64,000 nucleotides of DNA from a virus (IMGVR_UViG_3300025018_002313); one strand, 5' to 3'. Counted from the first letter of the stretch, positions 48,584-54,334 are shown. Notes: generated from the sequence alone by a model not told the origin. Made by a program: numbers and translations.

Positions 48584-48853
48584 TTATTCCCCTTTAGGCT
48601 CCGGATTGCCTTCATCCGCGGTTTTGCGGGTCTTTTTACCCACTCGTCCCACGTAATTGAGGCCGAGCTTCTCGATCGAGCCGAACTTGGCTGCGAGCTT
48701 GTCCAGGCGCTCTTGGTTGCAATACGTCCATGCGCCCGTCTCCGAGCATCGAACCAGATAGGCATTGCCTGTCTTGACAACGCCATCCACAACCTGAACC
48801 TTTTCAACTTCCTTGCCGCTGTACTGAATCTTCACTTTCACTTCTTCGCTCAT
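48584..48853 (-). CDS. hypothetical protein with W-x-YC-x-ERL domain
   Basis: Start set to ATG 48853 (MSEEVKV...) by promoter and RBS; CSETGAWTYCNQERLDKLAAKFGSIEKLGLNYVGR. Confidence 0.45.
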   Translation of the reverse strand: MSEEVKVKIQYSGKEVEKVQVVDGVVKTGNAYLVRCSETGAWTYCNQERLDKLAAKFGSIEKLGLNYVGRVGKKTRKTADEGNPEPKGE

Positions 48854-48889
48854 TTTTTCATCCTCCCTCTCTGTTGTTAATATACCTGT

Positions 48890-48918
48890 ATTGTACGCAC
48901 TTCTCCACTGCATTGCAA
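48890..48918 (-). promoter_or_regulatory. sigma70-like early promoter (family)
   Basis: TTGCAA-N17-TACAAT-ACAGGTATATTAACAACAGAGAGGGAGG. Confidence 0.55.
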
Positions 48919-48922
48919 CACT

Positions 48923-49255
48923 TTATTGCGTTGCTTGCTCCTTCACCTTATCCAGCTGCTTCCGCTGGTAATCATTCCAGGTCTGGAGATAGCTCGGTAT
49001 CTCATCCTGATTGGAACGACGAGAATCACGCTTGCGCGCCTTTGGAGATCTGGCATCAACAGCCTTGACTTCCCCAACGATCACTGGATCACCTAGCACA
49101 TCAACGTTGTCAGGATGCACAAAGGCTTCCTTGACTGTCTCCAGGCTCTCAGTCATTCCACGATCGTGAAAGAACTGAACCCGGCGCTGGTGCGTTACTA
49201 CCTTCACAGGCGCTCCGTTGTAATGTTGCTCATCGACTTCGCACTTGTAACCCAT
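48923..49255 (-). CDS. hypothetical early protein
   Basis: 110-aa ORF. Confidence 0.45.
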   Translation of the reverse strand: MGYKCEVDEQHYNGAPVKVVTHQRRVQFFHDRGMTESLETVKEAFVHPDNVDVLGDPVIVGEVKAVDARSPKARKRDSRRSNQDEIPSYLQTWNDYQRKQLDKVKEQATQ

Positions 49256-49307
49256 CTCATCACCTCTTCTGTTCGTTGTTTATACTACCTTCTCTTAACA
49301 CTCCAAT

Positions 49308-49336
49308 ATGATATGAAATATCCTGCTCAGGATCAA
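49308..49336 (-). promoter_or_regulatory. sigma70-like early promoter (family)
   Basis: TTGATC-N17-TATCAT-ATTGGAGTGTTAAGAGAAGG. Confidence 0.6.
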
Positions 49337-49471
49337 GCACAAAATCCTAATAAAACATTATTCCTTCTCTCCTAATTTTCAATAGTATACGAACATTTGG
49401 TAGGCATTACAAGCACTTTCTTAAAGCTCATTACACATGGCTCCATCGGGGGCTTGTGCACTTTGATATGA

Positions 49472-49508
49472 GAGAAAAAGAACAGGCTCCGCCTAAACGA
49501 AGCCTGTT
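49472..49508 (-). terminator. rho-independent terminator (conserved module)
   Basis: aacaggct-tcgtttaggcgg-agcctgtt then CTTTTTCTCTC on - strand. Confidence 0.6.
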
Positions 49509-49520
49509 TGTTCGGAAATG

Positions 49521-49688
49521 CTATTGCAAGTGTTTTAGTTCCACCGTATCAATGAGTTTGGTCTCATTGGAGAAGAACTCGAAAGTGTTGTTGCCAGGAA
49601 CGTAGGACCAGGTAACCGGTCCTTTGTGCTTACTCTCAAGTATCCTTGCGTAGCGTTTTACTACTTCAATGTCCAGCTCATCTTCCAT
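49521..49688 (-). CDS. small hypothetical early protein (55 aa)
   Basis: MEDELDIEVVKRYARILESK...; RBS ggagg; below cutoff. Confidence 0.4.
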   Translation of the reverse strand: MEDELDIEVVKRYARILESKHKGPVTWSYVPGNNTFEFFSNETKLIDTVELKHLQ

Positions 49689-49715
49689 CCTACACCTCCT
49701 TTAATTGTTACCTAT

Positions 49716-49744
49716 ATAATATACTCTTATAGGGTACAAAGCAA
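49716..49744 (-). promoter_or_regulatory. sigma70-like early promoter (family)
   Basis: TTGCTT-N17-TATTAT-ATAGGTAACAATTAAAGGAGG. Confidence 0.55.
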
Positions 49745-52083: not shown

Positions 52084-52131
52084 TTTTCTCCTTAATTATG
52101 ATTACATACACTTGTGTTCTAATACCCCTAC

Positions 52132-52160
52132 ATTGTATGATACATCATAAAGAGAGGCAA
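52132..52160 (-). promoter_or_regulatory. sigma70-like early promoter (family)
   Basis: TTGCCT-N17-TACAAT-GTAGGGGTATTAGAACAC...AAGGAG. Confidence 0.5.
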
Positions 52161-52197
52161 GAAAAAGATCAGATCAGCAGAGAAAAACTAGCAGGAT

Positions 52198-52755
52198 ATG
52201 ATAAGTATTTATATGAAAACAAAACAATGTGAATGCGGAACTATATTTGAATGTAAGAGTCTAAAGAAGAAAAGGTGCCCTGAATGTGATAAGCAGTTCA
52301 GATTCGAACGCGGTCGCATGGCAGCTGTTAAGCATCGTGCACTTCACCAAGACGTGATTAAGCAGCAACGGAAGGACTATATTCAGCAGAATAGAAAACA
52401 TGTCCGTAGAGTGTGGAGAGCATATAATGAGCGTGTAAAGAATGATCCACAAAAGATAGTTGCACGTAGATGTCGGGATAGGTTGAGATTTGTACTTAAA
52501 GCTCATTCTGTCCTGAAGGAGAATCACTCACAAGATCTGTGTGGGTGTACATGGCAAGATCTTGTTGAGCATATAGAACATCAATTTAAGGATGGCATGA
52601 CCTGGAGCAATTATGGTGATTGGCACATTGATCATATCAAACCTTGTGCGTCATTTGACCTAACTGATGAAATCCAACTCCAACAATGTTTTCATTTTAG
52701 TAATCTTCAGCCACTTTGGGCAAGCGAAAATTGTTCAAAGGGAGCTAAATACTAA
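52198..52755 (+). CDS. HNH-family homing-endonuclease-like protein (paralog 2 of 4)
   Basis: GMTWSNYGDWHIDHIKPCASFDL...CFHFSNLQPLWASENCSKGAKY; N-terminal Cys4 (CECG...CPEC). Confidence 0.65.
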   Translation: MISIYMKTKQCECGTIFECKSLKKKRCPECDKQFRFERGRMAAVKHRALHQDVIKQQRKDYIQQNRKHVRRVWRAYNERVKNDPQKIVARRCRDRLRFVLKAHSVLKENHSQDLCGCTWQDLVEHIEHQFKDGMTWSNYGDWHIDHIKPCASFDLTDEIQLQQCFHFSNLQPLWASENCSKGAKY

Positions 52756-52756
52756 A

Positions 52757-52786
52757 CAAAAAAAGGAGGCTCCCGAAGGAGCCTCC
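52757..52786 (-). terminator. rho-independent terminator
   Basis: ggaggctcc-ttcg-ggagcctcc then TTTTTTTG on - strand, downstream of 52801..53469. Confidence 0.65.
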
Positions 52787-52800
52787 CACTGGCGTGCCAC

Positions 52801-53469
52801 TTACGCCATTGCGCGGCGTTCGCGCCTTATCCGATTCTTCCGTTCGGCAGAAGTCTCACCGTCAATGTGGCGCAGCGGATCCAGGACCTCGGTCTCGGTC
52901 GGGATCGTGTCCCGAACTTCCGTGTCGGGCTTCGTCTCGGCCGTCGGAGCCTTCTCCTTGGGCGCCTTCTCCTTGGTCTCCTTCACCTGCTTGGAACCCT
53001 TGGGAGCCGCCGTCGCCGGCCAATCACCCGCTTCGAATCGGGCGCGCAGACCCTCATCGATCGTCGCCTGCTGGTCCTCGGTGAGCTCGGCAAAGGACTT
53101 GCCAGCCTCAACCTTGTTCGCCTCTTCCTTGCGCAGGCGCTTGGCGACCCGGTTGACGTAGCTGGCGCGCACGCCCTCTTCGTCCGTGTTCCCGGTTTCG
53201 CAGAGGTGCTTCATCCGCTCATCGCTGATGAACATCAGCTCGCCCGTCACCGTGCAGGCGATCTTGTTCTTGTGAACGAGCGCCTGGGCTGCTGCCTGAG
53301 CCTTCGAGACATCTTCCTCGTTTGCGGCCAGGAGCTTCTTGCCTTCACGGCTGACATAACCGGCGATCAGAGCTTCCTCCGAACCGAACTGGGCGATGAG
53401 CTTGTTGTAGCGCTCCTCGCTGCAGTAGGACCAGTTACCAGTGATGGTGCATTTCAGTTTACGTGTCAT
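52801..53469 (-). CDS. hypothetical protein with tandem W-x-YC-x-ERL-like domains (GC-rich island)
   Basis: KCTITGNWSYCSEERYNKLIAQFGSEEALIAGYVSREGKK and ACTVTGELMFISDERMKHLCETG...ASYVNRVAKR; GC content visibly higher than surroundings. Confidence 0.5.
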   Translation of the reverse strand: MTRKLKCTITGNWSYCSEERYNKLIAQFGSEEALIAGYVSREGKKLLAANEEDVSKAQAAAQALVHKNKIACTVTGELMFISDERMKHLCETGNTDEEGVRASYVNRVAKRLRKEEANKVEAGKSFAELTEDQQATIDEGLRARFEAGDWPATAAPKGSKQVKETKEKAPKEKAPTAETKPDTEVRDTIPTETEVLDPLRHIDGETSAERKNRIRRERRAMA

Positions 53470-53610
53470 TTTGTTCTTCCTTTCTTCTTCTGTTTATGTT
53501 ACTGTACCTATTAATATAGAGCGGTTTACAATAAAAAGCAATTGTTAATTTGTGTCATGTACCACTTTTTTATGCCTTGCTTTCATCGCTTACCTCTCTT
53601 ACAACACCCA

Positions 53611-53639
53611 TATGTATGAAAAGGCAGTGTAGAAAGCAA
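53611..53639 (-). promoter_or_regulatory. sigma70-like early promoter (family) with long leader
   Basis: TTGCTT-N17-TACATA-TGGGTGTTGTAAGAGAGG; second leader-like copy TATATTAATAGGTACAGTAACATAAACAGAAG nearer the ATG. Confidence 0.45.
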
Positions 53640-53674
53640 CATTAAAAGTCACGGCCTACACTTTTTTTCATATA

Positions 53675-54334
53675 TTACGTAATAACATTGTATTCGTAGT
53701 CGATTTCAGTTGATTTGAACTCATTGTCCTTGAGCTCTTTCCAGCGGCGCGGCTGTTCCGCGAACTTCTTCCATTCCTTCATTCCTACTCGGCAGCTATT
53801 CCACCAAGGGCAGTCATTGCAATAGCCACTGTTTTTCTCAATAGTTGAAGGATGAATGCAGACGAAAGTTCCTTCATCTGTCTTCGACATGAGATCAAAT
53901 GCATGCTGAGTGCGAGCTTTAATCTCACCTCCGTTGATATTGATGTTCGATGTATCAAAGGGTGGCTTGGGCAGGTATGTATACGTGCGCTTCTCGCTCG
54001 TCTGCTCGCGAACCGTCTGTTCCGCTTCCTGGCGAGCCAATGCCCTACGAGCCATGAAAGCTTTGTTGCTCTCGTACTTACCTCGCTCCAATGTAGGCAG
54101 GCGCTTCTTGACATCCTTCTCTTTCTGCTGCTGTTTAGCCTCCCGAGAGACATAGTTAGCACCAACCAACTCCGCGTCTCCGAACCTCTTGATGAGTTTC
54201 TCGAGCCGCTCGGCATTGCAGTAATGCCACGTCTTCGCAATGACACACTGTATATAGTATGTCTTGGAATTTTTTTTGAGGACCCCAGGTGCAAGCTCTT
54301 CACACTCTTTAACATTAACCACAATCCCTGCCAT
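53675..54334 (-). CDS. hypothetical protein with W-x-YC-x-ERL domain and C-terminal Cys-rich region
   Basis: CVIAKTWHYCNAERLEKLIKRFGDAELVGANYVSREAK; C-terminal CNDCPWWNSC. Confidence 0.5.
   Translation of the reverse strand: MAGIVVNVKECEELAPGVLKKNSKTYYIQCVIAKTWHYCNAERLEKLIKRFGDAELVGANYVSREAKQQQKEKDVKKRLPTLERGKYESNKAFMARRALARQEAEQTVREQTSEKRTYTYLPKPPFDTSNININGGEIKARTQHAFDLMSKTDEGTFVCIHPSTIEKNSGYCNDCPWWNSCRVGMKEWKKFAEQPRRWKELKDNEFKSTEIDYEYNVIT

Follow-up and report, generated by a model that had tools for sequence, protein, structure and literature searches.

The window analysed here, a stretch of 64,000 nucleotides from the virus IMGVR_UViG_3300025018_002313, contains three small minus-strand genes, designated A, B and C, whose products share a module of ~45 amino acids (aa); gene B is also the most GC-rich part of the window. 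The explanation that we favor, with a probability of about 0.6 for the whole of it, is that A, B and C are zinc-finger-derived paralogues, resident in the phage lineage and inherited vertically, that the codon bias of B is selected, and that the HNH genes of the same region were inserted later beside them. Small zinc-finger-like phage proteins are a known kind; what is new here is the module family, the three-gene set and the strong, maintained codon bias.

Three genes built on one module

The open reading frames (ORFs) that the initial annotation had assigned to A, B and C exist with the limits given for them and carry four copies of the module, one in A, two in B (B1 and B2) and one in C (Table 1). 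Their relationship is evident from pairwise BLASTP comparisons over ~41–60 aligned residues, which yield E values of 8e-14 (A vs B1), 1e-14 (A vs C) and 9e-12 (B1 vs C), the degenerate copy B2 giving 3e-5 and 9e-5. A six-frame scan of the 64 kb with a hidden Markov model (HMM) derived from the four copies detected no fifth copy, the next match having an E value of 0.42. The sequence motif by which the module had first been described is right in substance, but two of its spacings were off by one (YC-x2-ERL and KL-x3-FGS are the actual ones) and both B2 and C are devoid of several consensus residues.

In the AlphaFold2 (AF2) model of B, whose predicted local distance difference test score (pLDDT) is about 90 across residues 1–150, B1 consists of a β-hairpin (3–6 and 13–16) followed by helices 18–28, 31–37 and 41–49, these elements having a pLDDT of about 90, and B2 of strands 69–71 and 78–80 followed by helices 83–93, 97–103 and 107–120. 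The AF2 model of C, made with six sequences only, has a pLDDT of 83–90 for residues 1–112 and below 50 for the remainder, so that the C-terminal domain with its four cysteines (Cys4) is not resolved. As a part of the explanation given above, and probable to the extent that the whole is, A, B and C are paralogues resting on one unannotated mini-domain made of a β-hairpin and three short helices. The modules of A, B and C are basic, with a net charge of +3 to +6 and an isoelectric point (pI) of 9.1–9.8, and the median pI of the family is 9.2.

After its two modules, B has a helical region of acidic character and a disordered linker rich in Lys, Pro and Ala, and it ends in a basic helix; all 17 full-length, likewise unannotated homologues of B have the identical architecture. 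The Arg-rich C-terminal helix (ERKNRIRRERRA; residues 207–221, pLDDT about 87 in the AF2 model) belongs to a motif that is kept in 11 of the 17. In two members of the B family (P0015 and P0016) the DPLR...RKNRIRRER motif is swapped for long Ala/Lys/Pro-rich tails (AKKAAKKNAPKPAKKAPAKK) resembling those of histone H1-like or bacterial nucleoid proteins, a resemblance consistent with DNA binding. For A, the start at 48853 is preferred to the alternative upstream ATG because the homologues are 78–101 aa long and have the module at residues 27–32.

Composition of gene B

The claim that B is visibly more GC-rich than the rest of the phage is borne out by computation, its GC content being 61.1% and the GC content of its third codon positions (GC3) 78%, compared with 39.2% and ~30%, respectively, for the window. 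Among all 669-bp windows it ranks at the top (z = 5.0), and its codon usage is also outlying: CTG and CTC account for 100% of its Leu codons (19% in the large structural genes) and AAG for 91% of its Lys codons (52% in the large structural genes), Arg being encoded mainly by CGC and CGG. The GC excess ends where the coding sequence does, GC being 33% in the 215 bp that precede B and 27–37% in the corresponding upstream regions of its orthologues. B represents the peak of a sharply delimited block of 15 small genes with raised GC3, outside which the genes examined have a GC3 of 0.22–0.38.

One conceivable reason for this composition is a hidden feature, either a structured RNA or an overlapping antisense gene, for which the candidate is a plus-strand ORF of 215 aa (52867..53514); a second antisense ORF of 164 aa (52667..53161, plus strand) is also found inside B. 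Indeed, the antisense frame in the same register is fully or almost open in five of seven orthologues, including one (L006) in which the GC3 of B is only 43%. The frame is, however, broken in L005 and L009, where 108 of 198 and 145 of 221 codons, respectively, are open, no promoter or ribosome-binding evidence accompanies the antisense ORF, and the avoidance of TTA, CTA and TCA codons predicts open antisense frames anyway. Since, in addition, the saturation of synonymous sites described below argues against a conserved RNA structure or second frame, a hidden feature is very unlikely and the antisense ORFs, given the breaks in L005 and L009, are best regarded as by-products of GC-rich codons.

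Conservation of gene B and maintenance of its codon bias

Ten metagenomic loci containing homologues of B (L001–L010) were compared with the window. The gene order C-type gene, B, a few small genes, ClpS and A-type gene is kept across them, A lying downstream of ClpS in L001, L003, L005, L006 and L009, and four module copies per genome are found wherever the contig of the relative reaches far enough. In each of the related contigs examined, an orthologue of B with 40–81% aa identity sits at the same syntenic position, and in six loci the divergence of B tracks that of its neighbors C, ClpS and A, its identity being at least as high as those of C and ClpS in each (Table 2).

The compositional peak is likewise shared. 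B is richer in GC than the rest of its locus in all six relatives of Table 2; its sliding-window GC ranks 2nd of 1000 in L001, 3rd of 526 in L008, 13th of 424 in L009 and 15th of 716 in L005, and its GC3 ranks first to third among the crudely called genes of each locus, which is not consistently so for A and C.

Table 2. Identity to the window (aa) and base composition in loci related to it
Locus	B (%)	C (%)	ClpS (%)	A (%)	GC of B (%)	GC of rest of locus (%)	GC3 of B (%)
L001	52	35	27	41	54.7	41.7	
L003 (closest relative)	81	76	75	79	59.5	44.7	
L005					49.7	35.5	
L006	46	33	36	53	47.2	31.9	43
L008					60.1	33.6	80
L009	57	46	47	68	60.0	45.3	

That this bias is not a leftover of a transfer can be deduced from fourfold-degenerate sites at identically aligned residues, whose observed identity was compared with that expected from composition. 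The observed and expected values are 0.28 and 0.32 for the pair window–L001, 0.33 and 0.35 for window–L008 and 0.36 and 0.30 for window–L009, window–L003 being the only pair with signal left (0.71 vs 0.31 expected). The synonymous sites have thus fully turned over and yet GC3 has stayed high, which implies that the bias is maintained. A gene-specific codon bias kept past synonymous saturation offers a tractable case for the study of host-like or GC-rich codons in early genes of phages.

The initial annotation had taken the GC-richness of B as an indication of recent acquisition, and its position as a sign of import by homing endonucleases. Indeed, B stands out from the rest of the window in its composition, has a codon usage resembling that of a GC-rich organism and, together with C, lies between two HNH-like genes, the paralogues 2 and 3 of Table 1, as had been noticed; furthermore, an orthologue of HNH paralogue 2 stands beside B also in L001 and L002. 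Nevertheless, a recent GC-rich island brought by the flanking HNH genes from a GC-rich donor is extremely improbable. B occupies the same slot in all relatives down to 40% identity and has diverged like its neighbors, its GC3 has stayed high between lineages despite the saturation of synonymous sites, and L003, the closest relative, is devoid of HNH genes but possesses all three module genes. When the alignments of B and C were used for pattern scans of 185,579 species genomes and of IMG/VR, no relative was detected, and all ~260 representatives of the module family are short, phage-type proteins. The kept synteny, the neighbor-like divergence and the GC and GC3 peak despite saturation therefore indicate that B was not recently acquired; as one element of our overall explanation, and with the same degree of confidence, B has long been inherited vertically, its unusual codon usage being under active maintenance.

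Less improbable than a recent transfer, but improbable all the same, is an ancient one that took place at the origin of the clade; the high GC3 of B and its block would then be a slowly ameliorating relic devoid of present function. The whole 46.6–54.3 kb block is compositionally distinct, as such a transfer would have it, and the GC3 of B, ranging from 43 to 80% among lineages, partly follows the background. On the other hand, with fourfold sites at the identity expected from composition, an old signal should have decayed to the genomic level of ~30%, L008 holds a B with 80% GC3 against a background of 34% GC, and the HNH genes inserted in the block are at background composition.

The HNH genes as probable later insertions

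Four HNH/endonuclease VII (EndoVII)-like paralogues are present in the window (Table 1). They match phrog_1035 ("endonuclease VII"), the first three with E values of 1e-15 to 9e-11; a Pfam scan of these three gave no HNH match. Homologues of these genes were not found in L003–L010, though all these loci carry B together with a C-type and/or an A-type gene, and the orthologue of paralogue 2 is confined to L001 and L002 (E 1e-65), where it occupies the same place downstream of B. Even within the GC3-rich block, the HNH genes retain a background GC3 of 0.31–0.37. Their patchy presence and background GC3 indicate that the HNH genes are mobile insertions and the module genes residents, which is at odds with the import of B through HNH activity; judging from sequence, they behave as free-standing insertions of the homing-endonuclease type beside conserved genes and not as carriers of these genes. 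The 88-aa ORF directly downstream of paralogue 1 may belong to the same mobile insertion since, like paralogue 1, it is missing at this site in L003.

In being intergenic, on the opposite strand, near conserved genes and variably present, the HNH paralogues resemble the free-standing HNH/EndoVII homing endonucleases of T4-like phages, from which they differ in not having carried the module genes along, and their cleavage activity is putative. A GC-rich phage gene located beside homing endonucleases need not, therefore, be an import, and the present case corrects a tempting misreading.

The module family and its cysteine series

The module was correctly described as unrecognised. No match for A, B or C was found in Pfam, PHROGs or NCBIfam, the B- and C-family profiles gave nothing meaningful in the PDB by sequence, the fold of the module has no match there either, and comparison with helix-turn-helix families yielded no significant match by sequence or fold; the profile and fold searches placed the module in no well-characterised family. 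On the other hand, an exhaustive profile search with an alignment of 29 module sequences against 1.84 billion representatives retrieved 260 proteins at E ≤ 1e-3 and 80 at E ≤ 1e-10, nearly all of 60–270 aa. Three architectures recur, namely an A-type with one module, a B-type with two or, rarely, three, and a C-type with an N-terminal module and a C-terminal Cys4 domain. The unannotated domain family defined here comprises about 260 clusters. No known domain recurs with the module in the 137 family members scanned, which gave singleton matches only.

The nature of the module is suggested by four alignment columns that, in some members, are all occupied by cysteine. Among 222 aligned module copies these columns read CCCC in 26 and CCC- in 4, the full form being C-x2-C-x29-C-x2-C; CTCA or CSCA occurs in 18, CTSG in 61, CTSA in 30 and CSSA in 19, the rest having rarer patterns. 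In P0084, P0108, P0115 and P0138, for instance, the module reads C-x2-C ... RL..LI.KFGS.E.L...YVC-R-x-C. The four copies of the window have CTGG (A), CTSG (B1), CTNA (B2) and CASA (C), so that none of them carries four ligands. In B1 the corresponding residues (C7, T10, S40 and G43) are invariant or nearly so in the B family, and, to judge from the AF2 secondary structure, C7 and T10 would lie on the hairpin loop and S40 and G43 at the start of helix 41–49.

Since Cys4 is found in about 30 of the 222 copies at the columns where the window has C/T/S/G, the module can be regarded as a ligand-depleted relative of zinc ribbons or treble clefs and, with three of the four ligands replaced in this lineage, as a predicted metal-free derivative. 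The family thus appears to form a series, with Cys4 members arranged in the manner of a zinc ribbon or treble clef at one end and the cysteine-depleted copies of the window at the other, which helps annotate uncultured giant marine or environmental phages. As in C4 zinc ribbons and treble clefs, the distant members have two CxxC pairs, ~29 residues apart and predicted to lie on a hairpin and at the start of a helix, respectively; unlike in these, two extra helices separate the ligand pairs, no curated family or fold is matched, and metal binding is putative. Indeed, comparison of the Cys4 members with curated zinc-finger families produced only matches below the gathering score, scattered over unrelated zinc-ribbon families, indicating that the family belongs to no curated one. 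Ribosomal proteins of the zinc-ribbon type are known in "C+/C−" forms, some lineages being without the cysteines, and the window copies resemble such metal-free derivatives in that they keep the scaffold with three of the four ligands replaced. A literature search for loss of zinc ligands in phage zinc ribbons found nothing. Within a few genes of one Cys4 member there are a DUF2201_N gene and a gene for 371 aa, a neighborhood found also in the window, which suggests that the Cys4 forms come from phages of this group that are more distantly related.

A Cys4 motif of a different kind is located at the C-terminus of C (Table 1). All four of its cysteines are invariant in the six C-family members, and a C-x12/13-C-x2-C-x5-C domain is found in about 40 module-bearing representatives; P0108, P0115 and P0138 combine the C-type Cys4 domain with two or three Cys4 modules in one protein. 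The WhiB-like (Wbl) Fe-S proteins are characterized by the motif C-Xn-C-X2-C-X5-C and C resembles them in this spacing and in its "CNxCP" core, but no G[VI]WGG turn of the Wbl type is visible in its sequence. Homology with WhiB was rejected, since the Cys4 domain (six members) has no Pfam match at E values up to 10 and no match in the PDB; hhalign against an approximate sequence of WhiB1 gave a probability of 1.5% over 15 columns.

Expression signals and possible functions

The small-gene block around A, B and C does look like an early region, as the initial annotation had it. Upstream of B, a sigma-70-like candidate promoter is followed by a strong Shine-Dalgarno sequence (AAAGGAAG), a promoter-like site being present at −69 to −104 of B in six of seven orthologous loci, and the end of the gene is followed by a terminator-like hairpin, with comparable hairpins after the B orthologues of L001 and L008; C also has a candidate promoter (Table 1). 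The sigma-70-like pattern is enriched in the window, where it was found 16 times compared with 4.8 expected. With its predicted promoter, Shine-Dalgarno sequence and terminator, B is a putative self-contained transcription unit.

The basic modules, the Arg-rich helix and this predicted transcription unit lead us to favor abundant, early, nucleic-acid-binding proteins. The basic modules of A, B and C would bind nucleic acid; B, with its two modules and Arg-rich C-terminal helix, would be an abundant early product of its own sigma-70-like promoter and terminator, and A and C would be its single-module paralogues, C carrying a second, Cys4 metal site in addition. A gene-specific force, acting within the coding sequence only, would keep the GC-rich codons of B, the likeliest being selection on the translation or mRNA behavior of an early, highly expressed gene that uses the tRNA pool of the host, and the HNH genes would have landed next to the conserved module genes as insertions of the homing-endonuclease type.

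Several considerations weigh against this explanation. No homology ties the module to nucleic-acid binding, and modules of the zinc-finger type can equally bind proteins; the B protein taken as a whole has a pI of 7.6 and is thus close to neutral; patterns of the promoter, Shine-Dalgarno and terminator type are the only source of the terms "early" and "highly expressed"; and loss or gain of cysteines is not polarised by phylogeny. Furthermore, high expression is a feature of the late structural genes too, and yet their GC3 is low (0.24–0.31), so that simple translational selection is insufficient unless a temporal or host-tRNA argument is added.

The main rival to nucleic-acid binding is a role in protein binding, to which we assign an appreciable though minor likelihood. 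The module would be a recognition scaffold, with paralogues diversified for different targets, and A, B and C would be adaptors acting as host-takeover or anti-defence factors that dock on RNA polymerase, ClpS/ClpAP or a defence system. Zinc-finger-derived modules often mediate protein contacts, and a role of this kind would be in keeping with small paralogous genes lying in a block of tiny ORFs with candidate promoters of their own, with their linkage to a phage ClpS in all loci, and with the long disordered linker of B followed by a conserved short C-terminal motif, as is typical of docking peptides. Less easily reconciled with it are the uniformly basic character of the modules and the fact that these are core genes, B being the most conserved of the block, save for A in some loci, without the rapid evolution and patchy occurrence that anti-defence genes usually show.

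As to the codon bias, a precedent of smaller size is offered by Shigella phage Sf14, in which GC3 is 39% in the early genes, 32% in the late genes and 54% in the host (PMC12482277). The putative early block described here, with GC3 of 0.43–0.78 against about 0.30 elsewhere, is similar, but the effect is far larger, peaks in one gene (78%) and is kept across deeply diverged relatives. A bolder proposal, which we put forward as speculation and consider rather unlikely, is that the GC-rich synonymous codons of B are themselves an adaptation, a conserved "codon island" that extends, in weaker form, over the whole 46.6–54.3 kb block, and that B is an abundant nucleic-acid-binding protein with a new zinc-finger-derived fold. 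In a giant phage that is otherwise AT-rich, such an island would allow the genes expressed first to be transcribed, stable and translated in a naive host, either through a match to the host tRNA pool before takeover or through escape from AT-targeting silencers or nucleases.

Table 1. Positions of the genes, motifs and candidate signals in the window
Feature	Position	Strand	Remarks
Gene A	48584..48853	-	89 aa, single module, pI 8.9; 109 aa if started at the upstream ATG (48913)
Module copy in A	48623..48766	-	residues 30–77 of 89 aa; ligand columns C/T/G/G; net charge +6
Gene B	52801..53469	-	222 aa, two modules
Module copy B1	53326..53469	-	residues 1–48; ligand columns C7/T10/S40/G43
Module copy B2	53128..53274	-	residues 66–114; more diverged; ligand columns C/T/N/A
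C-terminal motif of B	52804..52878	-	PLRHIDGETSAERKNRIRRERRAMA; Arg-rich helix, net charge +4, pI 11.6
Candidate promoter of B	53513..53541	-	sigma-70-like, TTGCTT-N17-TATATT; pattern match only
Terminator-like hairpin of B	52754..52787	-	perfect 10-bp stem, 7 GC pairs, loop TTCG, T-run; 14 nt past the stop
Gene C	53675..54334	-	219 aa; N-terminal extended module, basic helical middle, C-terminal Cys4 domain; pI 9.0
Module copy in C	54122..54265	-	residues 24–71; ligand columns C/A/S/A
Cys4 motif of C	53792..53860	-	C159-x12-C172-x2-C175-x5-C181, GYCNDCPWWNSC; putative metal site
Candidate promoter of C	54361..54389	-	sigma-70-like, TTGCTT-N17-TATCAT
Raised-GC3 block	46652..54334	-	15 small genes, GC3 0.43–0.78, B the peak; includes A, ClpS, B and C
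ClpS homologue	49803..50084	-	PF02617 on orthologues; also in L001, L003, L005, L006, L009 and L011–L014
HNH/EndoVII-like paralogue 1	47831..48310	+	no counterpart at this site in L003
ORF	48312..48578	+	88 aa, directly downstream of HNH paralogue 1; background composition; absent at this site in L003
HNH/EndoVII-like paralogue 2	52198..52755	+	convergent with B
HNH/EndoVII-like paralogue 3	54402..54917	+	divergent from C
HNH/EndoVII-like paralogue 4	61118..61690	+	phmmer E 6e-26 to 1.5e-34 vs the other three; outside the region of the initial annotation

The phage and other genes of the window

The window encodes, among others, a tail sheath, a baseplate hub, a large terminase of the T4 type, a class II ribonucleotide reductase and numerous small ORFs. 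The best matches of the terminase among the GenBank phages (INPHARED) are terminases of T4-like cyanophages only, with 32–33% identity, a level pointing to the lack of cultured relatives and allowing no host assignment; megablast of the 47–56 kb region and tblastn of A, B and C against the same phages gave no match. An identical copy of A is found on metagenomic contigs of up to 236 kb. This gene content, the lack of GenBank relatives and the size of the A-bearing contigs indicate a large, uncultured myovirus; within the joint explanation, and as probable as the rest of it, the source lineage is a deep, uncultured, T4-superfamily-like myovirus of about 236 kb.

The phage ClpS, whose gene sits between those of B and A in every related locus, may serve to manipulate the ClpAP/N-degron pathway of the host. 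The block also contains an ORF for an 80-aa Cys-rich protein (50555..50797, minus strand; "CCDIC ... CPVC"), possibly an unrelated zinc-ribbon-like protein.

Elsewhere in the window, an 830-aa protein (30791..33283, plus strand) combines a Major Vault Protein shoulder (PF11978, E 9e-26) with a vault repeat (PF17795, E 1e-10), a vault-type protein being unusual in a phage; in the related locus L005, a gene for 441 aa (4799..6124) has a weak Band_7 match. The orthologues of a 160-aa gene (57798..58280, minus strand) match Ribosomal_L12 (PF00542), weakly in L011 and fully in L008. Beside it stand a DUF2201_N metallopeptidase-like gene and an ATPase gene (phrog_1297), at 58271..59638 and 61726..62856 on the minus strand, a pair that stays adjacent to the module genes even in distant relatives.

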